From contig JAXLWI010000011.1 in NCBI GenBank assembly GCA_046328575.1, positions 1,163-65,162 of the forward strand: DNA of 64,000 nucleotides. Reading direction: 5' to 3'. A model generated the notes under the pieces. The model was not told the origin of the DNA. It saw only the letters and a list, made by a program, of their open reading frames with translations, and did not search any database. Positions 8,985 through 64,000 of the stretch are shown piece after piece (positions within the stretch are counted from its first letter, which is position 1; every line of letters starts with the position of its first letter). Made by a program: the position numbers and the translations under genes. This DNA comes from Anaerolineae bacterium. Lineage in GTDB: Bacteria; Chloroflexota; Anaerolineae; Fen-1058.

Positions 8985-8988
8985 GGTC

Positions 8989-9987: not shown

Positions 9988-10011
9988 TGGCAGCGCGCCG
10001 TTGAGGAGGTC

Positions 10012-11112: not shown

Positions 11113-11126
11113 CGAGTTTTTAAAGC

Positions 11127-11162
11127 ACCGCGGCTCGATCGGGGACTGGATCGAGCCGCGGT
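11127..11162. terminator. Hairpin between convergent VWA gene and pckA
   Basis: Perfect 14-bp stem accgcggctcgatc / gatcgagccgcggt with an 8-nt loop. U-tracts are weak on both strands. Confidence 0.5.
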
Positions 11163-11183
11163 TTACGGTGAGTGGTTTCGGTC

Positions 11184-47900: not shown

Positions 47901-47939
47901 AGAAACAAAAACAGGCACATCTGACCAATGTGCCTGTTT
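47901..47939 (-). terminator. Intrinsic terminator of the xylF-G-H transporter operon
   Basis: 11-bp stem aaacaggcaca / tgtgcctgttt. On the minus strand it is followed by tttttgtttct. Confidence 0.75.
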
Positions 47940-47956
47940 GATCGAATTGAAACGCG

Positions 47957-49132
47957 CTAACTCTTATCTTTCTTGAAGGACATGTCGAGGAGCACAGCCA
48001 ACACCAGCACCGCGCCCTGCACCACATACGTGGTGGCCGGTGGCGCATTCAACATTTGCAGACCAGTCTTTAGACTCGCCATGATCAAACCACCGATCAT
48101 CGCACCCGGAATGGTGCCGACACCGCCCAGCGTGGATGTTCCACCGAGGATGGCGCTGGCGATCACGTCCAACTCATAGCCGCCACCCGCCCCGATCGTG
48201 CCGTATCCGACATAGGAAGCCAACACGATACCCGCCAGTCCGGAGAGGAAACCCATCAAGGTAAAGATCAGGAACAATTGGCGACGGATGTTAATACCCG
48301 ACAAGCGTGCGGCTTCACGGTTGCCACCGATTGCATACGCGTATCGACCGAAGCGTGTGTTGTTAGAAACATACGTCATAATCAACGCGACGAACCCCAA
48401 CAATAAGACTGGATACGGAATGCCAGGCGCAACTTTATACGAATTGACCACCGCGACATAGATGACTAACAGCGCCGCGTAAAACACCGTCTTTGCAACA
48501 TCCAAAGTTAGCGACGGTAGCGGGAAGCCATATTTTTGCTTGTTAGCCCGACCTCTAAACATCGTTAAGAACAAGACGGCAATGATCACCACCGTCAAGA
48601 TCCATCCTAACACATCGGGCAAGTAGCCCTGACCAATTTCAGAGAAGACGGGCTGATTGGCGGGAATCGTCTTGCCCTCTGTTTGCAGTAGCGTCAGGCC
48701 CTGCAAAATGAACATACTGCCTAACGTCACGATGAACGCCGGCACTCGCAAGTAAGCGGAGATATAGCCTTGAGCCGCTCCCCAGGCCGTGCCCACGACC
48801 AGACCGATGACGACCGACGCTAAGGCTGCGGCCGCTGGCTGATCGGGAAAGGTGGTATTCCAGCGATTCGCTTGAAAAAACGCCACCACCACCGATACGA
48901 AGCCGGCCAATCGACCCACCGACAGGTCGATGCCGCCTGTAACGATGATCAACACCATGCCGGCGGCCATCAGCGACGTCACCGACATTTGCCGGAATAG
49001 ATTCGAAATATTCTGCGGCGATACATAGCCGCCGTTGGTGGCGATCGTAAAGACCACCCAGATTAATACTAATGCGATAATGATGGTATACGTCTGAATG
49101 TTTCTGCGAAATGCCTGGGCGAAGTTATTCAT
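47957..49132 (-). CDS. xylH: Sugar (xylose-type, CUT2) ABC transporter permease
   Basis: About 390 aa with at least 10 hydrophobic helices. Its size and position after xylG fit XylH. ATG at 49132 with AAGGTG upstream; the track start at 49141 is a GTG. Confidence 0.8.
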   Translation of the reverse strand: MNNFAQAFRRNIQTYTIIIALVLIWVVFTIATNGGYVSPQNISNLFRQMSVTSLMAAGMVLIIVTGGIDLSVGRLAGFVSVVVAFFQANRWNTTFPDQPAAAALASVVIGLVVGTAWGAAQGYISAYLRVPAFIVTLGSMFILQGLTLLQTEGKTIPANQPVFSEIGQGYLPDVLGWILTVVIIAVLFLTMFRGRANKQKYGFPLPSLTLDVAKTVFYAALLVIYVAVVNSYKVAPGIPYPVLLLGFVALIMTYVSNNTRFGRYAYAIGGNREAARLSGINIRRQLFLIFTLMGFLSGLAGIVLASYVGYGTIGAGGGYELDVIASAILGGTSTLGGVGTIPGAMIGGLIMASLKTGLQMLNAPPATTYVVQGAVLVLAVLLDMSFKKDKS

Positions 49133-49172
49133 GCTGAGCACCTTGTCTGGATCAATGTTGACAGCAATTAGG

Positions 49173-50690
49173 TCAGGCGATACCGGTCGCCAGCGCCATG
49201 ATCTTCTCCTGCGTTGCCTCGGACGTCTTTAGCGTGCCATTCGATCGCCCTTGGCACATCACCATGATGCGGTCGCTCATGCCGATGACCTCTTCCAGTT
49301 CGCTGGAGATCATGATGATGGCAATCCCTTGCTCGGCTAATTGATTCATCAATTTGTAAATCTCGTACTTCGCCCCCACGTCCACCCCACGCGTAGGGTC
49401 GTCCATAATCAGCACCTTGGGACCAGATAGCAGCCATTTGGAAATGACTACTTTCTGCTGGTTGCCACCCGACAGCGACTCGACCGGCACATACAGGTTA
49501 GGCGCTTTTACGGCTAATTCGTTTGCTATCCTTAAACTCGCCACCACTTCTGCATTCTGATTGATTCGCATGAAAGCCGAAAATCGATCAAGATTGGGCA
49601 ACGAGATATTCTTCAAAATGGTTTGAATCAACACCAGACCATGCCGCTTACGATCTTCCGGCACCAGGCTAATGCCATGCTCCATTGCACTATGGCTGTT
49701 GGCGATCTTGATCTCTTGCCCGGCCAATTTAATCGAGCCTTGCGTGATCTTGGCGTATTCACCAAAGATCGTCATCACCAGTTCAGTGCGTCCAGACCCC
49801 ATCAATCCCGCGATGCCTAAAATTTCGCCTTTGCGAAGATCGAACGAGACGCCCTTCAACACCTCTCGATCGGCCCGCTCAGCCCTCAGTCCCGCGACCT
49901 CAAAAATCACTTCACCTGGCTGGCGATTGCCTTTGGGGAAGCGTTCCTTCATTTCACGCCCGACCATGTAGCTCACCAATTTCTCAGGCGTCAAATCTTT
50001 GGTAGCCTGCGTTGTGACAACTTTGCCATCACGCAGCACCGTAATATGATCGGAGATGCGGAAAAACTCATTCATTTTGTGGGTAATGTAAATGCACGTC
50101 ACGCCGAGACCCTTCAACGTGTGTAGAATCTCCATTAATTTATCGATCTCGGCTTCCGACAACGCACTGGTCGGCTCGTCCAAAATCAAGACTTTGGCAT
50201 CTTCCGACAAAGCCTTGGCTATTTCCGTCATCTGCATCTTGCCGACGCCCAGATCTTTGACCACATCGTGCGGATGCACATCCAACTTGTAGCGATCCAA
50301 AATCGCCTGGGTGTTGGAATATAGCTTGTCCCAATTCACCGAACCACGCTCGACCGGTTCCCGGCCCAAAAAGATATTCTCACCCACCGTCATATTCGGC
50401 ACCAGGGTTAATTCCTGGTAAACGATAGCAATGCCTTGCTCTGAAGCCTGATGAATTGCGCGTGCACCAAGCTTAAGTTCCTGTCCGTCATAGATAACGC
50501 TCCCTTCGTACGTGCCGAAGGGGTAAACGCCCGACAGGATCTTCATCAGCGTCGATTTACCTGCGCCATTTTCACCACACAACCCGTGAATCTCGCCGCG
50601 TTTCACTTGAAAGCTAACATCACTGAGGGCTCTGACACCGGGGAAAGTCTTGGTTACGTTCTTGAACTCCAGGATGACGTCGTCACTCAT
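49173..50690 (-). CDS. xylG: Sugar (xylose-type, CUT2) ABC transporter ATP-binding protein with duplicated NBD
   Basis: NBD1 has GENGAGKST, ILDEPT, ITHK. NBD2 has LSGGNQQKV, LIMDDPTRGVD. About 505 aa. Start preferred at the ATG at 50690 (MSDDVILEFKNV). Confidence 0.88.
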   Translation of the reverse strand: MSDDVILEFKNVTKTFPGVRALSDVSFQVKRGEIHGLCGENGAGKSTLMKILSGVYPFGTYEGSVIYDGQELKLGARAIHQASEQGIAIVYQELTLVPNMTVGENIFLGREPVERGSVNWDKLYSNTQAILDRYKLDVHPHDVVKDLGVGKMQMTEIAKALSEDAKVLILDEPTSALSEAEIDKLMEILHTLKGLGVTCIYITHKMNEFFRISDHITVLRDGKVVTTQATKDLTPEKLVSYMVGREMKERFPKGNRQPGEVIFEVAGLRAERADREVLKGVSFDLRKGEILGIAGLMGSGRTELVMTIFGEYAKITQGSIKLAGQEIKIANSHSAMEHGISLVPEDRKRHGLVLIQTILKNISLPNLDRFSAFMRINQNAEVVASLRIANELAVKAPNLYVPVESLSGGNQQKVVISKWLLSGPKVLIMDDPTRGVDVGAKYEIYKLMNQLAEQGIAIIMISSELEEVIGMSDRIMVMCQGRSNGTLKTSEATQEKIMALATGIA

Positions 50691-50717
50691 AGTGCCTTCC
50701 ATCCAGTCAGTGGAATC

Positions 50718-50805: not shown

Positions 50806-53040
50806 TTACGGCTTGGGCGGCTTCTGCGCATCGGGGATGTCGCGATAGACATCGTCATACTTCTGGAAACCGCTCTTCACCACGAGATCGAAGACGTTGT
50901 CCTTGTTGACTTGCTGCACTTCCAAGAACTGCGCCTTCACGTTGCCCTGATACTTGGTGTCATTGGTCAGTTCGGCCAGCGTGTAGTCCTTCAGCTCCGG
51001 AATCTGCGCGCCAGTGACCAGCTTATCCATCAGATCAGTCGCGATCGGGGCCAGATTGCGGATGTCCTTGAGGATCGACACCGTCAACTCACCCTTGACG
51101 ATACTGTTGCAGCCGTCCGCCGTCGCGTCTTGACCCGAGATTGGCACCTTGCCCGCCAAACCCTGCGCCTTCAGCGCTTGCAGCGCGCCCAGCGCCGTGC
51201 CGTCGTTCGAGGCGACCACCGCATCGATCTGGTTCTTCTGCGCCGTCAGGATGTTCTCCATCAACTTCAGCGCGTTCGCCGCATCCCAGTTGTCCACCCA
51301 CTGGTCCGCCACGACCTTGATGATGCCCTTGTCCACGTACGGCTGCACGATCTCATCCTGACCCTTGCGGAACAGAATGGCGTTGTTGTCCGTCGGGCTG
51401 CCGCCCAACTTCACCAACTTCAGCGGATTGTCCTTCGTCCACTTGCCGCCTTCGATGTCCACGGCCTTCATCACGCCCAACGCTTGCTGCCGGCCCACTT
51501 CCACGTTGTTGAACGATAGATAAGCCGCAATGCCCGTCGACTTGATCAGGCGGTCATAGGCGATGACCTTCACGCCCGCCTTGCCGGCCTTGTCCACGGC
51601 GGTCGCCGCGGCGTCGCCGTCTTCCGCCACGATGATCAGGCCTGCGGCGCCTTGCGCGACCATGTTGTCGATCTGGTCGTTTTGCAGCTTGACGTCGTGA
51701 TTGGCTTCCTGTACCAAGACCTTGTAGCCCTTGGCCTCTAGCAATTGCTTCATCAGATCGGATTCGGGCTTCCAGCGCTCGGTCGCAAAGTCCGACATCG
51801 AAATGCCGATGATCTTGCCCGCGCCCGTTTGACCACCGCTCGACGCACCACCCGGCAGTGCACCGGTATTGGGATCGGGCTTCTGATCGGCGGGGATGTC
51901 GCGATAAACAGCGTCATACGGCTGGAACTTGCTCTTCACCACGAGATCGAAGACGTTGTCCTTGTTGACTTGCTGCACTTCCAAGAACTGCGCCTTCACA
52001 CTGCCCTGATACTTCTTGTCGTTGGTCAGTTCGGCCAGCGTGTAGTCCTTCAATTCAGGGACGGTTGTGCCCTTGACCAGCTTATCCATCAGATCGGTCG
52101 CGATCGGGGCCAGGTTACGGATGTCCTTGAGGATCGACACCGTCAACTCACCCTTGACGATACTGTTGCAGCCGTCCGCCGTCGCGTCTTGACCCGAGAT
52201 TGGCACCTTGCCCGCCAAACCCTGCGCCTTCAGCGCTTGCAGCGCGCCCAGCGCCGTGCCGTCGTTCGAGGCGACCACCGCATCGATCTGGTTCTTCTGC
52301 GCCGTCAGGATGTTCTCCATCAACTTCAGCGCGTTCGCCGCATCCCAGTTGTCCACCCACTGGTCCGCCACCACTTTGATGATGCCCTGGTCCACGTACG
52401 GCTGCACGATCTCATCCTGACCCTTGCGGAACAGAATGGCGTTGTTGTCCGTCGGGCTGCCGCCCAACTTCACCAACTTCAGCGGATTGTCCTTCGTCCA
52501 CTTGCCGCCTTCGATGTCCACGGCCTTCATTACGCCCAACGCTTGCTGCCGGCCCACTTCCACGTTGTTGAACGATAGATAAGCCGCAATGCCCGTCGAC
52601 TTGATCAGGCGGTCATAGGCGATGACCTTCACGCCCGCCTTGCCGGCCTTGTCCACGGCGGTCGCCGCGGCGTCGCCGTCTTCCGCCACGATGATCAGGC
52701 CTTTGACGCCCTGCGCGACCATGTTATCGATCTGGTCGTTTTGCAGCTTGACGTCATGGTTGGCCTCTTGCACCAGAACTTCGTAACCCTTATCTTCAAG
52801 CAACTTCTTCATCAGATCGGATTCGGGCTTCCAGCGCTCGGTCGCAAAGTCCGACATCGAAATGCCGATCTTGTCCTTGCCGCCAGCGGGCTGCGCCGGT
52901 TGCGCGGGTTGCGCGGGCTGCGCGGGCTGCGCCGGCGCCTGAGTTGGAGCCGCGGCTTGCGGCGCGCACGCTGCCAGGAAAATGCCCAATACGGCGAGCA
53001 GTGAAACGAACTTCAGCGAGCGATTCTTACTGCGATTCAT
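50806..53040 (-). CDS. xylF: Lipoprotein with two tandem XylF-like periplasmic sugar-binding domains
   Basis: Lipobox LAAC followed by a (PAQ)5 linker. Two domains of about 345 aa (KIGISMSDFATERWKPESDLMK...VYRDIP) are joined by a Gly/Ser/Pro linker. AGGAGG RBS. Confidence 0.85.
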   Translation of the reverse strand: MNRSKNRSLKFVSLLAVLGIFLAACAPQAAAPTQAPAQPAQPAQPAQPAQPAGGKDKIGISMSDFATERWKPESDLMKKLLEDKGYEVLVQEANHDVKLQNDQIDNMVAQGVKGLIIVAEDGDAAATAVDKAGKAGVKVIAYDRLIKSTGIAAYLSFNNVEVGRQQALGVMKAVDIEGGKWTKDNPLKLVKLGGSPTDNNAILFRKGQDEIVQPYVDQGIIKVVADQWVDNWDAANALKLMENILTAQKNQIDAVVASNDGTALGALQALKAQGLAGKVPISGQDATADGCNSIVKGELTVSILKDIRNLAPIATDLMDKLVKGTTVPELKDYTLAELTNDKKYQGSVKAQFLEVQQVNKDNVFDLVVKSKFQPYDAVYRDIPADQKPDPNTGALPGGASSGGQTGAGKIIGISMSDFATERWKPESDLMKQLLEAKGYKVLVQEANHDVKLQNDQIDNMVAQGAAGLIIVAEDGDAAATAVDKAGKAGVKVIAYDRLIKSTGIAAYLSFNNVEVGRQQALGVMKAVDIEGGKWTKDNPLKLVKLGGSPTDNNAILFRKGQDEIVQPYVDKGIIKVVADQWVDNWDAANALKLMENILTAQKNQIDAVVASNDGTALGALQALKAQGLAGKVPISGQDATADGCNSIVKGELTVSILKDIRNLAPIATDLMDKLVTGAQIPELKDYTLAELTNDTKYQGNVKAQFLEVQQVNKDNVFDLVVKSGFQKYDDVYRDIPDAQKPPKP
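50833..52869. repeat. Tandem in-frame duplication, two 978-bp copies offset by 1059 bp
   Basis: Copy A is 50833-51810 and copy B is 51892-52869. The cores 51061-51652 and 52120-52711 differ at about four positions by eye. The flanks are clearly more diverged. Identical antisense ORFs at 51089-51301 and 52148-52360 confirm the offset. Confidence 0.9.
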
Positions 53041-53102: not shown

Positions 53103-53160
53103 GTTTGATCCACTCTCTAGTTTCGATCACCTCCTTTATCGAAACAAGCACCTCGATCAC
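53103..53160 (-). promoter_or_regulatory. Repeated GTGATCGA-type motifs and an 8-bp inverted repeat upstream of the binding-protein gene
   Basis: Plus strand: gtttgatccac (53103-53113), gtttcgatcac (53120-53130), cctcgatcac (53151-53160). gtttcgat / atcgaaac inverted repeat at 53120-53145. No good -10/-35 lies between here and the ATG at 53040. Confidence 0.3.
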
Positions 53161-53193
53161 TTCTTCAAGGGTATAAGACTGCTTAACTTGAGA

Positions 53194-54837
53194 TCATACT
53201 GATGGATAGGGACTCGGCAACTCAACTTCCAGCACAGTTCCACCGTTAGGTGGAGAGTCTACGTGCATTGTGCCGCCGAGTAATGCCACACGTTCGCTTA
53301 TCCCCAACAACCCAAAGTGCTTGGCCGCCGATAACTCCGCCAGATCGATCGGTTTGGGTAACCCCTGCCCATCATCGGCCAGCATCAGCCTGATGCTAGC
53401 CGTTGGCGTCCGCTCCACTCGCAACGCCACATTGCGGGCTGAGGCATGCTTGCGAACATTATTCAGCCCTTCTTGAACGATTCGGAACACCGACAATTCC
53501 AAGGCTTCCGGCAACCGCCCTAACTTCGGATCGATACTGAGTTCCAACTGAACGCCATGTCGCTCGGCCCATTCTTCGGCCAGCGAGCGCACCGCAGCTT
53601 TCAAACCGTGCGCCTCCAAGGTCGGCGGGCGTAAGTCGCTACACAATTGCCGTAAATCGGCCACAACTTGCCGCACGCTCTGCCGAATCCCTGCCAACTC
53701 GGCCTGTTGTTCTTCATCGTCGACTTCACCTTCGATGTCTTCCAGCCGATAGTTGAAACTCAGCAAATCTTGAATAACTTGATCATGCAGTTCACGCGCC
53801 AGAAACTTGCGCTCCTCTTCGCGCTCAGTCATCAAGCGTCGCTGAGCCGCTTGCAGCGCGATGTTGAGTTGATCGAGCACGTTCACCTGCTGTGCCAACC
53901 GCTCTAACAATTCCCGATTGAGCGAATCACGTTGCGCAAGGCTTTGCTGCAACGCGGCTTGTGTGCGTCGTAACTCATCAGTTTGCTGCTGAACCTGGTG
54001 ATAACTTTCCAACGCCCAGATGATGGGAGTCACCTGCTCTTGGCGCGTGCCGCCTACCATCAATTCCACGATCTCGCGCGGCGTTGAATCAGCCGTTACC
54101 CGATCGGCGATGACCCGGCCTTCATACATCACCAAAATCCGATTGGTCACTGCGAACAGATGCTTGAGATTGTCACTGGCGATGATCACGGCCACACCCG
54201 ATCGCGCCAACTGGCGAATCCGTTCCAGCATCCGTTCTTGTCGCTCGTAGCTCAGCACCGCCAACGCATCGTCCAGCACCAGCAAACGCGCCGGGCTGCA
54301 CAACGCCCGCACAATCGCTACGATCTGTTGTTGCTCGTCGGATAGGTTACTGACCTTAACATTGACGATGTGCGCCGCGCCAAACTCGGTCAGCAGTTCT
54401 ATCGCCCGTCGCGTCATCGCGACATCATCGGGCACACCCATCCGCCAGGGCCGACTCACCTCCCGGCCTAGCGAGATATTCGCCACAACATCCAGATTGC
54501 CCGCCAGCAGCGGTTGCTGGTGAACCATCGCGATGCCTTGCACTTGCGCCTGCGCCGGATTAGTCAGTTGCAGCGGTTGACTATCAAGCCGTAACTGCCC
54601 GCTAGTCGGCATATGCAGCCCACCGATGAGTTGCAACAGGGTCGACTTGCCAACCCCGCGCCGTCCGACCAACCCAATGACTTCGCCAGCCTCAATCTGA
54701 AGCGAGACATCTTGCAGCGCAACGAGTGTACCAAAGTGCTTTGAGACCTGATCGAGTTGCAGCAAAGGCGTGGACACAGGCTCCTTAGCGAGCGAGGGTT
54801 GGCCTATTGTATCACCGCGCCACAAATTGGTCACCAT
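53194..54837 (-). CDS. Fusion protein: degenerate ABC-transporter nucleotide-binding domain + coiled coil + HisKA_3/HATPase_c histidine kinase, soluble
   Basis: aa 24-255 are colinear with XylG NBD1 (Walker A GRRGVGKST, MVHQQ, LSDEQQQ, LLVLDD-ALA, IIASDN). aa 260-345 are Q/L/R-rich coiled coil. H-box ARELHDQVIQDL, N-box QEGLNNVRKH, DDGQG, GLLGISER. No TM helix. Confidence 0.8.
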   Translation of the reverse strand: MVTNLWRGDTIGQPSLAKEPVSTPLLQLDQVSKHFGTLVALQDVSLQIEAGEVIGLVGRRGVGKSTLLQLIGGLHMPTSGQLRLDSQPLQLTNPAQAQVQGIAMVHQQPLLAGNLDVVANISLGREVSRPWRMGVPDDVAMTRRAIELLTEFGAAHIVNVKVSNLSDEQQQIVAIVRALCSPARLLVLDDALAVLSYERQERMLERIRQLARSGVAVIIASDNLKHLFAVTNRILVMYEGRVIADRVTADSTPREIVELMVGGTRQEQVTPIIWALESYHQVQQQTDELRRTQAALQQSLAQRDSLNRELLERLAQQVNVLDQLNIALQAAQRRLMTEREEERKFLARELHDQVIQDLLSFNYRLEDIEGEVDDEEQQAELAGIRQSVRQVVADLRQLCSDLRPPTLEAHGLKAAVRSLAEEWAERHGVQLELSIDPKLGRLPEALELSVFRIVQEGLNNVRKHASARNVALRVERTPTASIRLMLADDGQGLPKPIDLAELSAAKHFGLLGISERVALLGGTMHVDSPPNGGTVLEVELPSPYPSV

Positions 54838-54904: not shown

Positions 54905-55960
54905 ATGTCTGCTATCCGATTGATCCTCGCCGACGATCACGCCATCGTTCGTGCCGGTTTGCGCAATGCGCTGCTGGAACTGCCCGATATGAGTGTGGTG
55001 GCCGAAGTCGGCACCGGTCCAGCCCTGCACGAAGCACTGGCCCGCCACCCGATCGACCTGCTGCTCGTTGATGTAGCCATGCCCGGTTTTGATCCGATAT
55101 CTGAAGTGCGCCACATCAAAGCCCAGTATCCCGATCTCAAAGTGCTGATTGTCAGCGCCTACGCCGACGAAGCCTACGTGGTAGGTCTCCTCGATGCTGG
55201 TGTCAACGGCTATCATCTAAAGGATCAGCCGCTGGCCGATTTGCAACTGGCCATACAGCGCATCCTCGCAGGCGAACGCTGGATCTCCGGCCCATTAGTC
55301 GAACGGCTGTTGCATCGCCGATCGGCCAGTGCCGCCCCAACGCCTGTGCCGCAACTCACGCGCCGTCAACGCGAACTCTTACATTGGTTGGCGCAGGGGC
55401 ATGATAATCGCAAAATCGCGCAAGCGACCGGCTTGAGCGTCAAGACGATCGAGAATCACCTGACGCGGTTGTATCGCTCGTTGGGGGTGTACAGCCGATC
55501 GGAAGCGTTGAGTTACTTGATGCGGCATCCCGAAGTCTTAGCCGCTACGAGTCAGGAGGCCGCCGCCAAAGTCCCCGAATCGGACTCAACCCGCACGCTG
55601 TCGGTGCTGCTCGTCGACGACAATCCACGTTATCGCCAACAATTGAGCCGACTCATCGGTAAGACCTATCCGGCTACGCTGCTCTACGAAGCCGATGATG
55701 TCGCCGAAGCCGTGCGTCTGGCCGAAAGCGCCAAACCGAACCTGGCGTTGATCGACGTGGTGTTGACGGATGAAGACGGCATCTACTGCACCCGCCGCGT
55801 GAAAGCCGTCTCGCCGGCCACGCGTGTCGTGTTGATCAGCGCGTATCCCGATCGGGAATTCCACCGACTCGGACTCAGCGCGGGTGCGGTCGCTTTTCTC
55901 GACAAGAAAGATCTGGACGCGGCCGCGGTGCGCCAAGTTATCGACGACGCCTTAGTGTAG
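54905..55960 (+). CDS. NarL/LuxR-family response regulator with an extra C-terminal receiver domain (REC-HTH-REC)
   Basis: Start moved to the ATG at 54905. REC1: LADDH, LLLVDVAMPG, VSAY, YHLKD. LuxR HTH: LTRRQRELLHWLAQGHDNRKIAQATGLSVKTIENHL. REC2: LLVDDN, ALIDVVL, ISAY, FLDKK. Confidence 0.85.
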   Translation: MSAIRLILADDHAIVRAGLRNALLELPDMSVVAEVGTGPALHEALARHPIDLLLVDVAMPGFDPISEVRHIKAQYPDLKVLIVSAYADEAYVVGLLDAGVNGYHLKDQPLADLQLAIQRILAGERWISGPLVERLLHRRSASAAPTPVPQLTRRQRELLHWLAQGHDNRKIAQATGLSVKTIENHLTRLYRSLGVYSRSEALSYLMRHPEVLAATSQEAAAKVPESDSTRTLSVLLVDDNPRYRQQLSRLIGKTYPATLLYEADDVAEAVRLAESAKPNLALIDVVLTDEDGIYCTRRVKAVSPATRVVLISAYPDREFHRLGLSAGAVAFLDKKDLDAAAVRQVIDDALV

Positions 55961-55972
55961 CATCTTCGGTTG

Positions 55973-57232
55973 TTAAGGTGCGGTATTGCCTGGTTGCCAC
56001 GCCTCGGGCTTGCCCAATATTTCGCGCACAATCAAACTCACGCCACCCATCACACACGCATCAAACTTGAAGGCCGACAAACAGATTTCGCCCCCTGCGC
56101 GTGACGCGGCCAACGCCCGCGCATTCACTTCTTGCTGAGCACGCGGAAGGATGTACGGCCCGGCCAGACTCAACACGCCGCCCAATACCACGCGGCCAGG
56201 GTTGAAAGCGTTGATCAAACTCGCCGTGCCGATGCCTAGATAACGACCCACTTCATCAAGGACGTGTAACACCGCCGGTTCGCCGTGTTCGGCCGCCTGC
56301 AAAATGTTCCGCATTCGAATCGCTTTAGGATTGCCGTTCACTTCGGGCAGTGCTAGCAACCACGGCGTCTGACCAAGATTTGCTGCCTGCTGTACACGCT
56401 CTACGATCGCCGTTGGACCAATCAATGTTTCCCAGCAACCGCGGTTGCCGCAATTACACTGCGGGCCATCTGGCACCAGCGTCATGTGCCCGATCTCTCC
56501 CGCGAAACCGCCGACGCCGCCAAACAACTTGCCGTCGATCACCAAGCCGCCGCCCAGGCCCACGCCCGCGCTCAGGTAGATAAAATGATCGGCTTGTTTG
56601 GCCACGCCCAGCATCTTTTCGCCGAACGCTGCAGCATTGGCCTCATTCTCGACGATGACGGGTACGCCGAAGGCCGCGCACCACATATCGCGCAGCGGCA
56701 CGTCGCGCCAGCCAAGGTTGGGCGCAAAGAGCAACGTGCCTGTCGCATGATCCACCAAGCCCGGCACGCCCAGCCCAATGCCTAGCACCCGATGCCCGCT
56801 GACTTGCGCCTGCTGCATAGCTTCGCGCACCAACATTTCAGCCTGTACCATCACCTGCGGCTGACCGGCTTTGGCTGAACCGTTCGTATCGATCTGACGC
56901 CGCCACACCACATTCGCGCGCAGATCGGCCAACACAACCGAGATGAAGTCAACGCCGATCTCAACGCCGACAATTCGCCCGGCATCCGGATTGATATCGA
57001 TCAGCAAGCCTGGCCGACCCGGCCCCACATTCTGTGTGCCGAGTTCACGCACGAAGCCTAACGTCTGCAACTGCGCCAGCAGCGTGCCAATCGTGCTTTT
57101 GTTGAGGCCGCTGATTTCGGTCAGCCGCGCCCGCGCGATCGGGCCGCCCGCTTCCCAGATATAGCGCAGCACAATCGAGAGGTTTCGCTCTCGCACCCAA
57201 TTTTGATCAGCCGTTCGATAGCGTGGAGGCAT
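55973..57232 (-). CDS. ROK-family transcriptional regulator (XylR-like repressor)
   Basis: N-terminal wHTH (RARLTEISGLNKSTIGTLLAQL). ROK glycine motifs GVGLGG. Zn motif CNCGNRGCWE. Located directly downstream of xylB. Confidence 0.85.
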   Translation of the reverse strand: MPPRYRTADQNWVRERNLSIVLRYIWEAGGPIARARLTEISGLNKSTIGTLLAQLQTLGFVRELGTQNVGPGRPGLLIDINPDAGRIVGVEIGVDFISVVLADLRANVVWRRQIDTNGSAKAGQPQVMVQAEMLVREAMQQAQVSGHRVLGIGLGVPGLVDHATGTLLFAPNLGWRDVPLRDMWCAAFGVPVIVENEANAAAFGEKMLGVAKQADHFIYLSAGVGLGGGLVIDGKLFGGVGGFAGEIGHMTLVPDGPQCNCGNRGCWETLIGPTAIVERVQQAANLGQTPWLLALPEVNGNPKAIRMRNILQAAEHGEPAVLHVLDEVGRYLGIGTASLINAFNPGRVVLGGVLSLAGPYILPRAQQEVNARALAASRAGGEICLSAFKFDACVMGGVSLIVREILGKPEAWQPGNTAP

Positions 57233-57249: not shown

Positions 57250-58773
57250 TTAGTCTGGCAGCGAATGGAACGTATCTTTCAGGGCCGGATACAACGCGCG
57301 ATATGACGGGTACAAACGCTCGTATTTGGCGGCATTTTCGGAAATTGGCGCAGTCCGATCGGTGATCTTGATCGTTGCGGCCACGGCTTCGTCGACGCTC
57401 TTGAACGTACCCGCGCCAACTCCGGCCAGCAAAGCCGCGCCAAACGCCGCGCCTTCGGTCACGTTGACCAGCACCAATTCCGCACCGAACACATCAGCCT
57501 GAATCTGCCGCCACACAGCACTGCGCGCGCCGCCGCCCGACGCCCGCACCTGCTCGATTGGCACACCCAGCCCCTTGATCAATTCGAGGCTATCGCGCAG
57601 ACCAAACGACACGCCTTCCAACACTGATCGCACGAGATGTGCTTTGCCGTGCCGCAGCGTCAGGCCCACAAACGCGCCCCGCGCCTGCGGATCAGGATAT
57701 GGTGTGCGTTCGCCGGTGAGATACGGCAGGAACAACAAGCCCTCGCTGCCAACCGGCGCGAGCGCAGCTTCTTGCGTCAACAGTTCATAGGGATCAACGT
57801 CGATCAACTTCGCGGCGGTTTTCTCGGTATCGCCGATCGAATCACGCAGCCAGCGGAACGATCCACCCGCCGACAACATCACGCCCATGTAGTGCCATTT
57901 GCCGGGCACGGCGTGACAAAAGGCGTGCAGGCGACCTTGCGCTTCCGCCGCATAATGATCGCTGTGCGCGAACACAACGCCGCTCGTCCCCGACGTGACC
58001 GAGATCACACCCGCTTTTACGATACCGCTACCCACGGCTTGCGCGGCTTGATCGCCGCCGCCGCCTACAACCGGCGTGCCTTCTTTCAAGCCCGTTGCTT
58101 TAGCCGCGCTCGCGCTGATGCGGCCTGATACCACGTCAGACTCTGTACACGTCGGCAGCCACACGCGCGGAATGTCCAGCGCGCCCAGCATCTCATCCGA
58201 CCAGCGGCGATGCTCGACATCAAGTAATGACATGCCCGACGCATCAGAAACTTCCGTCGCGTATTCGCCCGTCAAACAAAAACGCACGTAGTCCTTGGGC
58301 AGAAGAATATGTGTCGTCTGATCAAAAACTTGCGGTTCGTTTTCGCGCACCCACACGATCTTGGGAGCGGTGAAACCAGGCAGCACCTGATTGCCGGTCA
58401 GTTGCAGCAACCGATCGAGCCCGCCCACTTTCGCGGTGATTTCGGCACATTGTGCGCCCGTGCGCTGATCGTTCCACAAAATGGCAGGCCGCAAAACGCG
58501 ATCGGACTTGTCGAGCATGACGAGGCCGTGCATCTGACCTGTCATCCCAATCGCGGTTACTTCATCGCCCGATCGGTTCGCTTTGCTGAGCGCCGCTTTG
58601 ATACTAGCGACCGTGCCCTGCCACCAATCGGCGGGATCTTGCTCTGACCACAGCGGCTTCGGCGTCGAAAGGGGATATTCGGTGGTGTGCGTGGCGATGA
58701 CGTTGCCGCGCTCATCGATCAACAGCGCCTTCGCGCCGGTCGTGGAAACATCGATGCCGAGAAGAAGAGCCAT
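57250..58773 (-). CDS. xylB: Xylulokinase
   Basis: Start moved to the ATG at 58773 (GAGGTG upstream). LLGIDVSTTGAKALL, FGGH-family motifs GGGDQAAQAVG and ASGGGARS. About 507 aa. Confidence 0.9.
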   Translation of the reverse strand: MALLLGIDVSTTGAKALLIDERGNVIATHTTEYPLSTPKPLWSEQDPADWWQGTVASIKAALSKANRSGDEVTAIGMTGQMHGLVMLDKSDRVLRPAILWNDQRTGAQCAEITAKVGGLDRLLQLTGNQVLPGFTAPKIVWVRENEPQVFDQTTHILLPKDYVRFCLTGEYATEVSDASGMSLLDVEHRRWSDEMLGALDIPRVWLPTCTESDVVSGRISASAAKATGLKEGTPVVGGGGDQAAQAVGSGIVKAGVISVTSGTSGVVFAHSDHYAAEAQGRLHAFCHAVPGKWHYMGVMLSAGGSFRWLRDSIGDTEKTAAKLIDVDPYELLTQEAALAPVGSEGLLFLPYLTGERTPYPDPQARGAFVGLTLRHGKAHLVRSVLEGVSFGLRDSLELIKGLGVPIEQVRASGGGARSAVWRQIQADVFGAELVLVNVTEGAAFGAALLAGVGAGTFKSVDEAVAATIKITDRTAPISENAAKYERLYPSYRALYPALKDTFHSLPD

Positions 58774-58793
58774 AGCTTCACCTCGTAATGCGC

Positions 58794-58833
58794 AACGAGT
58801 AATGAGTGAACAACCTTTCACTCATTACTCGTT
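58794..58833 (-). other. Intercistronic stem-loop between xylA and xylB
   Basis: Perfect 15-bp stem aacgagtaatgagtg / cactcattactcgtt with a 10-nt loop and no U-tract on the coding strand. Confidence 0.55.
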
Positions 58834-58845
58834 ACTTGTTTGTCC

Positions 58846-60015
58846 TTAACGGACCCCAAGGAGCAAATCGATTGTCAGTTGATCCAGCTTCTCATACGGT
58901 TGACCGCGCTGACCTAACGCCACCCGATCGAACTCACGGGCCTTCAGGGCCGCCGCTTTGCCGGTCGAGTATGCGCCGAAGAACTCGTTCATCGAGCCAT
59001 CATCGGCGTTGATTTCGGCTAGCAAGGCCTGAATTTCCGGATCGGCATTGAACTGCGCCGCTTTTTCTTTGAGGATCAAATACGTGCGCATACAGCCCTT
59101 GGCGAATTCTTTCACGCCTTCCAGGTTGTCGGTGCGATAGGCATGCGCGTCGAAGTGGCGCGAACCGGCATAGCCCACGTCTTCAAGGAACTTGACCAGA
59201 TAGAACGCGGCTTTGGGATTCTGCGAACCGAAGCGCAGGTCCTGATCGTAGCGCGCGTAGTTCTGATCGTTAAGGTCGATGTGGAATAACTTACCCGCAC
59301 CCCACGCCTGCGCGACCGCATGCATGAAATTGAGGCCAGCCATGTGCTCGTGCGCCATCTCTGGATTGACGCCCACCATCTCGGGATGATCGAGGGTGGC
59401 AATGAAACCCAACATCGCGCCAGTGGTCGGTAAATAGATGTCGCCGCGTGGTTCGTTCGGTTTGGCTTCCAGCGCAAACTTCAGATCATACTTATTGTCG
59501 AGCGCATATTCGCACAGGAAGTTCATGGCTTCGCGGAAGCGCTTACCCGAATCGAGCGCGCTCTTGCCAGAGTCGGTCTCGGTACCTTCACGGCCGCCCC
59601 AGAACACATAGGTCTTTGCACCTAATTCAACGCCCAGATCAATGGCGCGCATCGTCTTGTGCAGAGCGTAGGCCCGCACCTTTGGATCGTTGCTGGTAAA
59701 CGCCCCATCTCGAAAAGCGGGATCGTTGAAGAGATTGGTGGTGGCCATCGGGACACAGAGACCGGTGTCGCTGAGGGCCTGCTTGAAATCGGCGACGATC
59801 TTATCGCGTTGAGCGGGGGTTGCATCGATTGGGACGAGGTCGTTGTCGTGGAAGTTCACGCCCCACGCGCCGACTTCAGCTAGCAAGTGAACGATTTCGA
59901 CGGGCGACAAAGCCGATCGGACCGCCTTGCCAAACGGATCAGAACCGGTATTGCCAACAGTCCACAGGCCAAAAGTAAATCTGTGTTCGGGTTTGGGTTG
60001 ATACAGGGAAGCCAT
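58846..60015 (-). CDS. xylA: Xylose isomerase (class I, short type)
   Basis: Start moved to the ATG at 60015 (AAGGAG 8 nt upstream). [29 protein letters not shown], and a length of about 389 aa. Confidence 0.92.
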
Positions 60016-60049
60016 CAGTTTCACTCCTTGTGACGGAAATTCGAGCGGG

Positions 60050-60085
60050 GTTTGTTTGGGCGTTAGCCAAACTAACGACATTATA
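60050..60085 (-). promoter_or_regulatory. Putative XylR operator abutting a TATAAT -10 box upstream of xylA
   Basis: In gene orientation: TATAAT (60085-60080), then GTTAGTTTGG-ctaacgc-CCAAACAAAC (60076-60050). The 10-bp arms have one mismatch. The element ends 35 nt upstream of the ATG. Confidence 0.45.
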
Positions 60086-60267: not shown

Positions 60268-62190
60268 CTAGCCTTCTCTGAAGGTCTGCAGCGTGTCGAG
60301 GTAATGCTCTGGCAGACCGATGTCGAAGCGCCGCCCGTCGATGACGACGCCGTGGAAACCATCTTCCTGCCGCAACCGATCGAGGCACGAGGTCAACTGA
60401 AACTCGCCGCGCTCGCGTACGTTGTTGACAATGTGCTCTTCCAGATACTCAAAAATTTGCGGCTTGATGATGTACTGGCCAAAGAGCGTCAGATATTCGC
60501 CCTGTGGTAGACCGCTGACGAAGAGATGCTCACGGGCATAGTCAGCTGTGGGCTTCTCGGCGAATTCGGTCAGGTTCAGCAACCGATTGGCCTCCAGCCA
60601 CACGCCCGTTACTGTGCCAAACGCTGCGATCTGGCTCTCCGGCGTACGCCGCAACCCGACGACGCTGACACCATGTTGATGATAGGCATCCAGCATTTGC
60701 TGCGCGCACGATCGATCCGTATTCGAGCGATACAGGTGATCGCCCAGCATCAGCAAGAACGGCTCGTTGCCGATCGCTTCCCGTGCGCAATAGACCGCAT
60801 GCCCAAAGCCCTCCTGCGCGGTCTGCGTGACAAAGGTGACGTGCCGTCCGATTTCCAACAAGCGGTGCGAATAATCTTGGAAATGACGCGGGAGTTTGTT
60901 GTAATTCTCGATCGAGATCTGCGCGTTAAAGAACGACTTGAAATCATTCAGGTCGTTCTCCTGAACGATGATAACCACTTCTTCGATGCCGGCGTTTAAC
61001 GCCTCTTCGACGATGAACAGAATCGCCGGCTTCGCGATACCATCTCGATCGACCACCGGGAACAATTCCTTCTTGGTCGCCTTAGTCGCCGGGAACAAGC
61101 GCGTGCCAAAGCCGGCCGCTGGAATCAACGCCTTACGCACCTTGCGACCCGGCTTCAGCGTAAACGTCAGACACGACATACCCAAATCGCGTTCGATGAT
61201 CTCAACCACCGCCTGTTGATCGGCGGCGCTGCGCGCCAAAAATTGTGCGGTGCCATCGCCCTGTGAGCCGACGCCTTTGCCGCCCCAGACGTGCGGCTTT
61301 AGCGGCGCGTAATTCAAAACCTTATGAAGAACCGGCGAGGTCAACTCCTCAGGACAAGCGGGCGTGGCATATCGATCGAAAAACGCTTGCGCTTCCACCA
61401 TCAACGCCCCTAAGCGCTCCGCATCGCCCCCCTTGAGAGAATCAAGCGCCTGATGCACGATCCGTTTGTTGATCGGTCCCAATAGTTCCTGCACGCCATG
61501 TTCGACCTCGTTCTCGGCGAACGGATAGCAGCGATTCAGCCGATTGAGAATCTCCATCGTGTCCTTCTGCGCGTGCAGATCGACGATGACGAAGTTGAGT
61601 TCGGTATTGACCTGCAACTCTTGCGTATCCAACCGATCCCCGTCGAACGTCATCAGCACAGGACGCGTGCCAAACGCACAGCCCTGATCCATACGACCGC
61701 ACCGCGACGGCGTGGTGATCTCGCCCATGTAAGCTAATTCCATCTCACCGCGCGTGGTCAATTTGAGATCGTATACGCGATTGAACGCCCGCGCCGTCAA
61801 CACGCAGATCGCCGCACTGGACGACAGACCCTTCTTCATCGGCAGATCGGTCAGATAGTTGTCGATGACAAGGCCGCGCACTCGATAGTTCGTCGCCACC
61901 TGATAGGCCACACCCGCCATGTAACTCCAAAAGCCGCCGCGTTCGGCTTCTTCCAGCAAGGCTTTCGGCTCCATCGGGATTTCATACGGGCCGATGATTT
62001 CGCCGTCGGGCGTGCGCGACGACAAGACCAGCGAGGTCGGATGCGAGGAGACTTCGGCGTAGATGCCTTGATTCGTGCCGCTGATCAGGCAATAACCTTT
62101 TTCGATCTCGGCGTTTGTCCGACGATGCCCCCCGGCCCAATCGGAGTGCTCGCCCATCAAACAGATGCGGCCCGGAACAAATATCTTCAT
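60268..62190 (-). CDS. Bifunctional GHMP sugar kinase / GalU-type sugar-1-phosphate nucleotidyltransferase fusion
   Basis: N-terminal half: PGRICLMGEHSDW and PMKKGLSSSAAICV (GHMP motifs). C-terminal half: KALIPAAGFGTRLFPATKATKKELFPV (GalU-type motif) and LLMLGDH. ATG at 62190 preferred over the TTG at 62202. Confidence 0.8.
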   Translation of the reverse strand: MKIFVPGRICLMGEHSDWAGGHRRTNAEIEKGYCLISGTNQGIYAEVSSHPTSLVLSSRTPDGEIIGPYEIPMEPKALLEEAERGGFWSYMAGVAYQVATNYRVRGLVIDNYLTDLPMKKGLSSSAAICVLTARAFNRVYDLKLTTRGEMELAYMGEITTPSRCGRMDQGCAFGTRPVLMTFDGDRLDTQELQVNTELNFVIVDLHAQKDTMEILNRLNRCYPFAENEVEHGVQELLGPINKRIVHQALDSLKGGDAERLGALMVEAQAFFDRYATPACPEELTSPVLHKVLNYAPLKPHVWGGKGVGSQGDGTAQFLARSAADQQAVVEIIERDLGMSCLTFTLKPGRKVRKALIPAAGFGTRLFPATKATKKELFPVVDRDGIAKPAILFIVEEALNAGIEEVVIIVQENDLNDFKSFFNAQISIENYNKLPRHFQDYSHRLLEIGRHVTFVTQTAQEGFGHAVYCAREAIGNEPFLLMLGDHLYRSNTDRSCAQQMLDAYHQHGVSVVGLRRTPESQIAAFGTVTGVWLEANRLLNLTEFAEKPTADYAREHLFVSGLPQGEYLTLFGQYIIKPQIFEYLEEHIVNNVRERGEFQLTSCLDRLRQEDGFHGVVIDGRRFDIGLPEHYLDTLQTFREG

Positions 62191-62216
62191 GATTGCGCTC
62201 AACTTTCAGATGAGAT

Positions 62217-64000
62217 TCAATGATTGACTTTCATACCCAGGAAGCGAGTGATGATCTGCCGCCGCCAGAAGAACCGTACCAACAGCAACCATAGGCCGAC
62301 GCCTGCGGACACCACGCCCACTTCCAGCAGGCCCAACGTCGACAACGCAAAGACCGATCGGAACGTGGGAACGATCGAGATAACGGTGAAGGCCGCCAAT
62401 AAGACGCCGACCATGATCGTCGGCCGCCAATCGCCGCTGAGCGTATCGCCGCCCGTGAACCACTCGGTCGGCGGTTCGACGAAGATCACCAGCAACAAGC
62501 CCGTCAATACGAGGAACGAGGTCAGCGTCGTCTGCGCCAGCGGAATACCGGCCGTCAACATCCCCGCCGCCTGATCGGGCGACACATGTGCAGGCGCGAG
62601 CGGCCCGCTAACCGGCAGCAACAGCGCCGCGTAAAAGACCATCAAGCCGACCGCGCTAGTGAACAACACTGGCGTCAATACAAAGTTAGCCAGCCGCTGC
62701 ACGATGGTGCCCTTCGCTGTCGTGCCGGGTCGCGCCCACACCGCTAACAACACAGCGGGAATGCCGACTGAGAACAGTGTCACCAGCGAACCGTGCCGCA
62801 GTGCCAACGGGAACACACCGATAATCAGCGACGACACGATCAGCAGCGCCATCGTCAAAATGCGCGTCAAAAATAGGCGCAAAATGTCCTGCATGCCGTT
62901 GACGATGCGCTGGCCTTCCTGCACGGCAGGCGCGAGCGCGGCAAACGAATCCTTCATCAAGACGATGTCGGCCACAGCGCGGGTGGCCTGGCTGCCGCTC
63001 TGCATTGAGATGCCAAGGTTGGCTTTCTTCAGCGACAACACATCGTTGACGCCATCGCCGATCATGGCGACGTAGTGGCCGCGCGCCTTCAAAGCGTCGA
63101 CCAGTTTCTCTTTTTGCTGTGGCGTGATGCGGCCAAAGATTGTAGCGGTGCTGGCCGCCGAATTGAATTGCTCGTCCGTCATCTGTTGCAATTCGATGCC
63201 GCTGATCAAGTTGACGCCTTCGCCCAAGCCTGCTTGCTTCGCTAAAGCGTAGACGGTTTCGGGATTATCACCGGAGATGATCTTGGGCTGCACGCCCGAT
63301 CGGATGAAGGCTTCCAGCGTTTCCTTCGCTTCGGGACGCAGCTCGTCGCTCAGGCTTAACAAACCGATCGGCTGCAAGTCATCCGGCAGTGTGGAGTTGT
63401 CGCCATCGTCGTGCAGACGTGTGTGATCGGGGTGATGCGCGACCAGTAAAACACGCAGCCCTTGATCCGTCAGTTGCCCCGCTTGCGCCGTGATCGATTG
63501 CCACGCCACTGAGTCGAGTTCGCCCTTCGCGCCGAGATACGGTCGCAGCATTTCCGGCGCACCCATCGCATACAGGCCGCGCAGCGACGCGTCATTGAAC
63601 GCCACCGCGCTCCACTTGCGGGCCGATGAAAACGGCACGTCCGCCACGGGCGAAAGCCGATCGGCCTGGTAGGCCGCCGCGACGGCTTCGGCGGTTTTGT
63701 TCAACGTCGCCGCACTCGCCACCATCGTCCCCAGAATGCGCTGTAAATCGGCCTTGTTGAAATCGAACGGATGCACGTCGTTGACCTTCAAGCGATTCGC
63801 CGTGAGCGTGCCCGTTTTGTCGAGGCACAACACGTCGACGTTGCTCAAAGACTCGATCGCATTGCTCTGCTGAACGAGCGCGCCGAACCGAATGATGCGC
63901 ACCGCGCCTAACGCATACGCCACTGAGATCGACAGGAACAGGCCGTTCGGCACCAGACCTACCACCAAAGTCGCATCGGCGATGCTTTCCGACGCGGCGA
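62217..64000 (-). CDS. Cation-translocating P-type ATPase (C-terminal two-thirds; 5' end outside the window)
   Basis: The reading frame is open to base 64000. CLDKTGTLT phosphorylation site, MIGDGVNDVLSLKKANLGISM hinge, and C-terminal TM helices. Confidence 0.85.
   Translation of the reverse strand, partial: AASESIADATLVVGLVPNGLFLSISVAYALGAVRIIRFGALVQQSNAIESLSNVDVLCLDKTGTLTANRLKVNDVHPFDFNKADLQRILGTMVASAATLNKTAEAVAAAYQADRLSPVADVPFSSARKWSAVAFNDASLRGLYAMGAPEMLRPYLGAKGELDSVAWQSITAQAGQLTDQGLRVLLVAHHPDHTRLHDDGDNSTLPDDLQPIGLLSLSDELRPEAKETLEAFIRSGVQPKIISGDNPETVYALAKQAGLGEGVNLISGIELQQMTDEQFNSAASTATIFGRITPQQKEKLVDALKARGHYVAMIGDGVNDVLSLKKANLGISMQSGSQATRAVADIVLMKDSFAALAPAVQEGQRIVNGMQDILRLFLTRILTMALLIVSSLIIGVFPLALRHGSLVTLFSVGIPAVLLAVWARPGTTAKGTIVQRLANFVLTPVLFTSAVGLMVFYAALLLPVSGPLAPAHVSPDQAAGMLTAGIPLAQTTLTSFLVLTGLLLVIFVEPPTEWFTGGDTLSGDWRPTIMVGVLLAAFTVISIVPTFRSVFALSTLGLLEVGVVSAGVGLWLLLVRFFWRRQIITRFLGMKVNH

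Follow-up and report, generated by a model that had tools for sequence, protein, structure and literature searches.

Histidine kinases can borrow signals from transporters (Bce, Pst/PhoU, UhpC) or from binding proteins (LytS, VirA, LuxQ), always through non-covalent coupling, and therefore the step from transporter conformation to kinase is still hard to study. The BceAB-BceS system senses flux. MalK, the nucleotide-binding domain (NBD) of an ATP-binding cassette (ABC) importer and an active ATPase, also has a signalling role, in that its surface sequesters the activator MalT; UhpB, a polytopic membrane kinase of the HisKA_3 type, senses through the transporter-like protein UhpC. In the present study, a 64,000-nucleotide stretch of DNA from an Anaerolineae bacterium (contig JAXLWI010000011.1, referred to as the window) was found to encode a soluble HisKA_3 kinase fused to a degenerate NBD of the type found in CUT2 sugar importers. 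It is very probable that this kinase is functional and that, with a pseudo-ATPase input domain derived from a CUT2 NBD, it governs the neighbouring sugar importer together with the adjacent response regulator. This would be a monosaccharide ABC importer, here for xylose; we infer both the ligand and the direction of regulation.

The window system would resemble BceAB-BceS of Firmicutes, in which the kinase has no sensor domain of its own, its signal comes from the conformational cycle of an ABC transporter, and the regulator controls the transporter genes; the structure of the BceAB-BceS complex has been solved (PMC10314905). PstSCAB-PhoU-PhoR likewise informs a histidine kinase of the state of an ABC importer, and does so inside the cell, where the NBD (PstB) is the point of relay (PMC9239213, PMC13577022, PMC4423584). 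XylFII-LytS, ChvE-VirA, LuxP-LuxQ, TorT-TorS and HptA-HptS share with the window a Peripla_BP_4-type (XylF/ChvE) binding protein as the likely primary ligand receptor and the expression of a sugar ABC importer as output (PMC8050422). Kinases that depend on binding proteins have been reviewed; all those covered are transmembrane, and an extracytoplasmic domain touches the binding protein (PMC8050422). The window kinase has no membrane segment, and therefore its signal would have to cross the membrane by way of the ABC permease.

The NBD-kinase and its family

The kinase, its domains and its presumed partner are located in the window as follows.
53194..54837, minus strand: NBD-fused histidine kinase gene; long open reading frame (ORF) of 547 amino acids with ABC_tran, HisKA_3 and HATPase_c domains (Pfam)
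54049..54777, minus strand: degenerate ABC NBD, residues 21-263 (Pfam, NCBIfam, motif alignments, AlphaFold2 predicted local distance difference test score (pLDDT) of ~90, Foldseek match to MalK)
53818..54042, minus strand: near-invariant, family-specific linker TPIIWALESYH (residues 270-281) and signalling helix/coiled coil (residues 266-340; helix in the model)
53617..53814, minus strand: DHp domain of HisKA_3 type, residues 342-407, with the phospho-acceptor His351 (codon 53785-53787) in the H-box RELHDQ (Pfam)
53197..53616, minus strand: catalytic ATP-binding (CA, HATPase_c) domain, residues 408-547, with conserved boxes EGLNN, DDGQG and GLLGISER (Pfam)
54905..55960, plus strand: divergent response regulator of 351 amino acids, REC-LuxR/GerE HTH-REC, presumed cognate partner (Pfam, two Response_reg and GerE)

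An initial annotation of the window had proposed this three-domain architecture from the letters of the DNA and had set hidden Markov model matches as its test beforehand; all three domains match. ABC_tran covers residues 41-192 (E 2e-27, 96.9 bits against a cutoff of 25), HisKA_3 residues 342-407 (E 7e-13, 49.3 bits, above cutoff) and HATPase_c residues 448-542 (E 8e-9, 36.4 bits, above cutoff). CUT2 (TC 3.A.1.2) ATPases (XylG, RbsA, YtfR, GguA) are the best match to residues 23-269, which align to NBD1 of YtfR, XylG, AraG and RbsA in NCBIfam. Scores against the CUT2 ATPase equivalog models are 148-158 bits (cutoffs 699-850), the kinase having a single NBD and not the tandem of ~500 amino acids. 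By BLASTP, the kinase NBD is 32.5% identical over 249 amino acids to NBD1 of the neighbouring XylG (E 7e-32) and 28.8% identical to NBD2, which agrees with the colinearity with XylG NBD1 noted at the outset. The C-terminal half aligns to the kinases MctS, UhpB and LiaS (NCBIfam). No transmembrane segment or signal peptide is found in the kinase by hydropathy or in the AlphaFold2 model, since the peak Kyte-Doolittle score over 19 residues is 1.38, compared to 2.74 for the permease XylH; the product was thus rightly described as having no hydrophobic segment.

The AlphaFold2 model, for which a 52-sequence alignment was the input, has a mean pLDDT of 79.9. The NBD (residues 21-263) is confidently predicted and is followed by a short hinge of low confidence. 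An unbroken helix of 106 residues (266-371) then bears His351, and DHp helix 2 and the CA domain come next. About 85 residues of helix separate the ABC_tran NBD from HisKA_3, and the heptad register of the signalling helix is nearly constant (a/d positions 54% hydrophobic, against 18% elsewhere), in line with the coiled coil that had been read as leading into the H-box and HATPase_c core. In Foldseek comparisons the kinase NBD matched MalK, MetN, LptB and others (E 1e-18 to 1e-19, root-mean-square deviation 1.7-3.7 A), with MalK superposing at 1.7-1.8 A over ~226 aligned columns.

The true start of the kinase is probably the GTG codon 21 (54777), giving a protein of 527 amino acids. This start is preferred because it is preceded by AAGGAG, the N-terminus of the family aligns there, residues 1-20 are disordered in the model (pLDDT <50), and a promoter-like site (GTGACC-17-TACAAT at 54834-54806) lies within codons 1-20, which are probably untranslated. 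With this start the divergent spacer to the regulator gene would be 127 bp; the 67 bp given in the initial annotation holds for the long ORF.

The kinase core is typical of HisKA_3 proteins, with the H-box His, the HATPase_c boxes and an adjoining gene for a LuxR-type regulator. Across 80 species the H-box stays near RELHDQ and its His is kept. A REC-LuxR-REC regulator (53-86% identity) adjoins the kinase in 67 of 80 loci, and in those 67 species neither receiver has lost its acidic pair, its acceptor Asp (D55 and D283, respectively), its Ser or its Lys. Judged by these residues, the kinase core and both receivers of the regulator are intact and conserved. The domain order REC-LuxR/GerE-REC is itself unusual.

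Relatives of the kinase are numerous. A search of 5.8 billion proteins (clustered at 90% identity) yielded more than 120 clusters with the same three domains at 57-99% identity, all with automatic names ("ATP-binding cassette domain-containing protein" or "signal transduction histidine kinase"). A scan of one genome per species found 492 stretches encoding relatives. The best 80 of these 492 all belong to Anaerolineae, Anaerolineales or Thermoflexales (Chloroflexota); they include the cultured strains Anaerolinea thermolimosa IMO-1 and Ornatilinea apprima P3M-1, and the closest are metagenome-assembled genomes of Thermoflexales (79-81% identity). A scan seeded with divergent members added 519 stretches from metagenomes. 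When proteins are clustered at 50% identity, the full-length fusions fall into only about five clusters of the library, and below them stand ordinary tandem ATPases or lone kinases.

These results confirm that the NBD-kinase fusion is genuine and constitutes a family within Anaerolineae-type Chloroflexota. The window comes from an uncultured organism, and an artefact (chimeric assembly, an ATPase and a kinase fused by frameshift, or a decaying pseudogene) had to be considered. Chimeric assembly and frameshift fusion are ruled out by the more than 120 clusters, the 492 stretches and an independent JGI contig, in which the ROK gene, the regulator, the kinase and the start of the next gene occur in the same order and the kinase is 99% identical. 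The same fusion and family-specific linker recur in hundreds of independent genomes and contigs, the frame is intact and the motifs are conserved, leaving an artefact with a negligible probability.

Such artefacts do occur, as the fusion-like singleton P0152 illustrates. Its NBD is canonical, and it was considered as a second fusion family and rejected. The ENA contig that encodes it has a length of 1,976 bp. The N-terminal 42% of P0152 matches an ordinary sugar-transport ATPase and the C-terminal 59% a Terriglobales PAS kinase (PAS-kinase-REC), each at 97% identity. P0152 is most likely a chimeric contig in public protein collections, and it serves as a negative control for the genuine fusions.

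No paper describing an NBD-fused kinase was found in the open-access literature or bioRxiv. No solved structure in the PDB spans both halves, matches being limited to the NBD segment (query residues ~15-258), and NCBIfam has no dedicated curated family for the fusion, its matches being partial and far below cutoffs. By these searches the architecture is uncharacterised, as had been supposed, but it is not rare: it is common in one bacterial class and unstudied.

Loss of catalytic residues is a general property of these NBDs. The window NBD has a Walker A (GRRGVGKST) and a Q-loop (MVHQQ, Q107), but its signature reads LSDEQQQ, its Walker B LLVLDD (Glu replaced by Asp) and its H-loop IASDN (His replaced by Asp), as originally claimed, and the canonical catalytic set (LSGGQ, Walker B Glu and H-loop His) is absent. 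Among 153 aligned kinases, the H-loop His is missing from every one, nearly all have the signature L[ST]xEQ[RK]Q, and about 144 (~94%) retain the Walker A Lys. The second acidic residue of Walker B is Asp in 100 (the window's clade) and Glu in 40 (mostly a distal clade of 41-49% identity), and the rest have Asn, Val, Ala or His. Because loss of the H-loop His is universal, the LSxEQ signature uniform, the Walker A Lys mostly kept and the pattern of Glu clade-specific, the degeneracy is read as selected and not as a sign of decay. No relaxed constraint was seen on the window NBD relative to its close relatives after loss of the neighbouring permease. Of the earlier description of the domain as ATP-binding but hydrolysis-impaired, the second part agrees with this family-wide degeneracy; ATP binding is uncertain, given the universal signature Glu and the lineages without a Walker A Lys.

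In a tree, the kinase NBDs form one clade beside NBD1 and single-NBD lineages, not NBD2. They evolve faster than NBD1 of the same loci (column identity 0.55 vs 0.78; mean identity 52% vs 72%), and their best-conserved parts are Walker A (the highest), the H-loop region and the C-terminal stretch into the signalling helix. Standalone single NBDs in the same loci are fully canonical (LSGGQ, DEPT, His), and therefore the functions of transport and sensing seem to be separated. One lineage (L082, L083 and L084) has lost both the Walker A Lys and the Q-loop Gln; it keeps the fold, the linker P-x-I-W-A-L-x-S-Y and the kinase. By its motifs it is a fully nucleotide-blind pseudo-NBD. This Walker A-less lineage also includes P0126 and P0129, and DHEGQAILE and ERVGNGVST occur at the Walker A position.

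Importer genes and a proposed docking mechanism

The kinase gene is followed in the window by genes for a complete CUT2 importer.
50806..53040, minus strand: tandem (2x) XylF D-xylose binding lipoprotein, 744 amino acids (NCBIfam xylF 597 bits, cutoff 390, two stretches)
49173..50702, minus strand: XylG-like tandem-NBD ATPase of the CUT2 importer (NCBIfam xylose ABC ATPase 672 bits, cutoff 699; two ABC_tran in Pfam)
47957..49141, minus strand: XylH-like permease (BPD_transp_2, Pfam 3.8e-39), the sole CUT2 permease in the window and candidate docking partner

The initial annotation gave this order (kinase, tandem XylF, XylG and XylH, with a divergent regulator) correctly; its assignment of the regulator to a plain NarL type did not stand, in view of the two receivers. 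No second permease, binding protein or single NBD occurs elsewhere in the 64-kb window.

Association with CUT2 importers is conserved in relatives. Of the genome loci, 28 have flanks of 6 kb or more to either side; among these, a CUT2 permease was found in 27 (the exception ends at a contig edge) and a REC-LuxR-REC regulator in 24. The usual companion is a ChvE/GguA-like "multiple monosaccharide" importer, which comprises a tandem binding protein of ~725 amino acids, a tandem-NBD ATPase ~50% identical to XylG and one permease gene. Ninety-one loci have at least 3 kb upstream, and in 37 of them a same-strand permease gene lies directly upstream of the kinase, mostly at ~7-100 nt, or at ~1.1-1.3 kb with an extra gene between. 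Sixteen of these permeases are typical, with their own tandem ATPase before them, nine are preceded by a canonical single NBD, and 12 have no ATPase directly before them; the permease in these 12 loci is a divergent second one that shares 25-29% identity with XylH. In L002 (compact system at 7647-11575) and L005 (1529-5662), a divergent regulator is followed by a binding protein, the permease and the NBD-kinase (gaps of ~20 nt) and then by unrelated genes, and no other ATPase was seen across the whole contigs (21.5 and 12.3 kb). L004 (6719-11641), L077 and L150 have a full typical importer and also a second set (binding protein, canonical single NBD and second permease) that ends in the NBD-kinase. 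Loci of this type thus have two parallel CUT2 systems, one of which is apparently for signalling.

The following mechanism is proposed. A kinase dimer, held by the DHp domain and the long coiled coil, would present two NBDs, which would dock on the cytoplasmic face of the homodimeric CUT2 permease in the usual place of the transport ATPase. Contact with a sugar-loaded binding protein on the outside of the cell would make the permease rearrange, and the NBDs would shift relative to each other. This movement would run along the continuous helix to His351 and switch kinase/phosphatase activity there, and the regulator would then control the importer genes. The complex would be a receptor and not a pump, because hydrolysis is disabled (H-loop His absent family-wide, catalytic Glu absent in the window's clade); ATP may be bound as a structural cofactor. 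In relatives, the partner would be the second permease dedicated to the kinase, which in some of them comes with a second binding protein. A dedicated permease set is absent from the window, so the partner here would be XylH, in competition or alternation with XylG, or a permease encoded elsewhere.

We give a probability of about 0.5 to this reading, in which the kinase dimer docks its pseudo-ATPase domains on the permease dimer and relays the occupancy of the binding protein, with docking suggested by gene order. Docking on a CUT2 permease gains real comparative support from the upstream permeases in relatives, from the 12 of 91 loci where the permease has no ATPase of its own directly before it, and from L002 and L005. 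The stoichiometry and the modelled geometry fit as well: a single permease gene implies a homodimer, the kinase is an obligate dimer, and the C-terminus of the NBD runs straight into the helix. The close spacing of the genes and the division between canonical transport NBDs and degenerate kinase NBDs agree with the model too. Because the L082/L083/L084 lineage lost Walker A and the Q-loop Gln and yet keeps fold and linker, the fold or its contacts may be the conserved function, and not nucleotide sensing. A further idea is offered tentatively: an ABC importer may have been turned into a complete transmembrane receptor, made up of the binding protein, a dimer of the permease and a dimer of the NBD-kinase, in which the permease no longer moves sugar. 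If true, it would be a route of transmembrane signalling not yet described for two-component systems.

Several observations weigh against docking. The Q-loop/groove region does not stand out in the kinase NBD, with a relative conservation of 1.00 in the kinase NBD and 1.15 in genuine NBD1, and the helical subdomain has 0.67 and 0.86, respectively; by itself this comparison does not discriminate. In 27 of 154 members a fixed 27-residue insertion (for example, QTSGLINRFDFSTQIFLNRDSGVEITRRT) directly follows the Q-loop Gln, at the place where canonical NBDs have their coupling-helix groove. Insertion carriers with resolved context all have the regulator-kinase-binding protein-ATPase-permease layout, like the window, and none has a permease directly upstream. 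The 27 members with the insertion are the following.
Insertion sub-clade: L019, L021, L026, L029, L030, L032, L033, L042, L048, L051, L052, L054, L056, L059
Insertion sub-clade, continued: L061, L063, L068, L072, L075, L079, L143, L147, L149, L151, L155, L157, L158

The universal Glu at position 4 of the signature replaces the Gly that faces the gamma-phosphate; it would be hard to reconcile with canonical closure of an ATP sandwich, and NBD-NBD movement may leave the canonical cycle. Gene order also has its exceptions, because 54 of the 91 loci, the window included, have no permease directly upstream. Within the window's clade a permease is immediately upstream in every relative with upstream sequence, the exceptions being the window and its near-identical twin contig L081. 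Two parts known from L004 and L003 seem to be missing in the window, namely the block of binding protein, single NBD and second permease and the ChvE-like importer, which places the kinase directly before true xylFGH orthologues (75, 82 and 68% identical to the second transporter of L003). Finally, a regulator gene beside the operon that it controls is expected under any mechanism.

Some of these observations would suit a cytoplasmic sensor of nucleotide or energy state, in which the NBD binds ATP/ADP or another cytoplasmic ligand without contact to a permease, and NBD dimerisation sets kinase activity and so ties a costly importer to energy status. The kinase is soluble, the Walker A Lys is widely retained within the most conserved region of the NBD, the groove is not preferentially conserved, and in most loci, as in the window, no permease gene stands directly upstream. 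We nevertheless consider an energy sensor unlikely, since members without Walker A and Q-loop Gln keep the domain and linker, the signature Glu makes a canonical ATP sandwich less likely, the family is associated with importers of the XylF/ChvE type and no others, and permease genes without an ATPase gene directly before them, tightly followed by the kinase gene, would be hard to explain. Heterodimerisation of the kinase NBD with a canonical NBD, either standalone or one half of XylG, would instead let the kinase read the ATPase cycle, and thus flux and not occupancy, for which BceAB-BceS is a precedent. A canonical single NBD lies just upstream of permease and kinase in nine of the 91 loci, and the kinase NBD clade stands beside the NBD1 and single-NBD lineages. 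This arrangement is rather improbable, however: XylG and typical ATPases are tandem NBDs with no free dimer face, neither site of a heterodimer would be fully competent, the kinase as a dimer already supplies two NBDs, and many loci have a permease and no single NBD. Pairing with XylG, suggested in the initial annotation, is unattractive for the same reason, as XylG holds two NBDs in one chain.

Docking could also serve mainly to restrain transport. A hydrolysis-dead NBD in the ATPase site would inhibit the importer, and the window offers only a transport permease, so the pseudo-NBD might dock on XylH chiefly to block or throttle transport, with kinase activity secondary. This overlaps with the docking mechanism, but as the principal role it is improbable, considering the strong conservation of the kinase core, its H-box and the regulator that partners it, and that relatives own dedicated second permeases instead of sharing that of the transporter.

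Other features of the window

The remaining features near the importer genes are the following.
47909..47939, minus strand: terminator-like hairpin (13-bp stem and T run) at the end of the kinase-xylFGH run
53121..53144: perfect 8-bp inverted repeat GTTTCGAT-N10-ATCGAAAC in the 153-bp kinase-xylF spacer, candidate operator
55973-57232, minus strand: ROK-family regulator (Pfam ROK 4.8e-63)
57250-58821, minus strand: xylulokinase-like (xylB) gene, read from translation
58846-60081, minus strand: xylose isomerase-like (xylA) gene, read from translation

The two halves of XylF are fused in frame behind a lipoprotein-like leader with PAQ repeats. Their DNA is 94.6% identical (994 bp, 50 mismatches, 4 gaps) and their protein ~95%, so the duplication could be recent, held similar by gene conversion, or an assembly expansion. 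A look-up gave no second record of the exact tandem product, and the duplication thus has no independent confirmation. Tandem (2x Peripla_BP_4) binding proteins also occur in related loci, and the XylF orthologue of L003 is single.

Scans of the window for sigma-70 promoters and terminators stayed at chance level except for the terminator after xylH. Two TCGATCAC(C/T)TC direct repeats, 30 bp apart (53123-53163), overlap the inverted repeat, which by its position may be an operator for the LuxR-type regulator or the ROK repressor. One further match to the inverted repeat occurs in the window, within a coding region, and there is no second intergenic copy. ROK genes are neighbours in 10 related loci. 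Beside the xylose genes, an ORF of 644 amino acids (60268-62202, minus strand) seems by its translation to join a GHMP-type sugar kinase (GEHSDWAG) to a nucleotidyltransferase (AAGFGTRLFPATK), and may be a sugar-1-kinase/NDP-sugar pyrophosphorylase. The translation of 62217-63968 (minus strand) reads as the C-terminal part of a P-type ATPase (DKTGTLT motif), which appears to reach upstream beyond the listed TTG start, perhaps past the end of the window.

Comparison with known signalling systems

The systems discussed at the outset differ from the window kinase in specific ways. BceS is a membrane protein bound non-covalently to BceB in a type VII exporter-like system for peptide antibiotics (PMC10314905), whereas the window kinase is soluble, covalently fused to a hydrolysis-dead NBD, and associated with a binding-protein-dependent CUT2 sugar importer. 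It has no two-helix membrane part as in Bce-type kinases, and the permease encoded nearby is of the BPD_transp_2 type and not FtsX/BceB. In PstSCAB-PhoU-PhoR, where PstB is a working ATPase, the signal passes by way of an adaptor, PhoU, to the PAS domain of PhoR, which is anchored in the membrane (PMC9239213, PMC13577022, PMC4423584); the window kinase has neither adaptor nor PAS domain, and the NBD is part of the kinase itself. Kinases such as LytS (with XylFII) and VirA (with ChvE) have an extracytoplasmic domain, which a soluble protein without signal peptide cannot offer. MalK-MalT and UhpC-UhpB are coupled non-covalently, unlike the window fusion. The C-terminal half of the kinase is similar to UhpB. 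Relative to the CUT2 ATPases, the kinase has a single NBD instead of a tandem, the LSxEQ signature and no H-loop His; Glu is lost in the window's clade, and evolution is faster.

The NBD-kinase family has many conserved members, some of them in cultured strains, and lends itself to experiment; its mechanism is so far a proposal. It would be the main sugar-responsive two-component system of Anaerolineae, an abundant and poorly studied group that occurs in digesters, sediments and hot springs. With only three genes, for binding protein, permease and NBD-kinase, the compact versions would be a minimal reconstitutable system for signalling from an ABC permease to a kinase, and modular sugar biosensor design could follow. 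The family would also show how a motor domain became a pseudo-enzyme sensor step by step, the H-loop His being lost first, the catalytic Glu next and Walker A last. In all of the compared systems coupling is non-covalent; in the NBD-kinase it is covalent. The NBD is a new input module for histidine kinases, and possibly opens a new transmembrane route.

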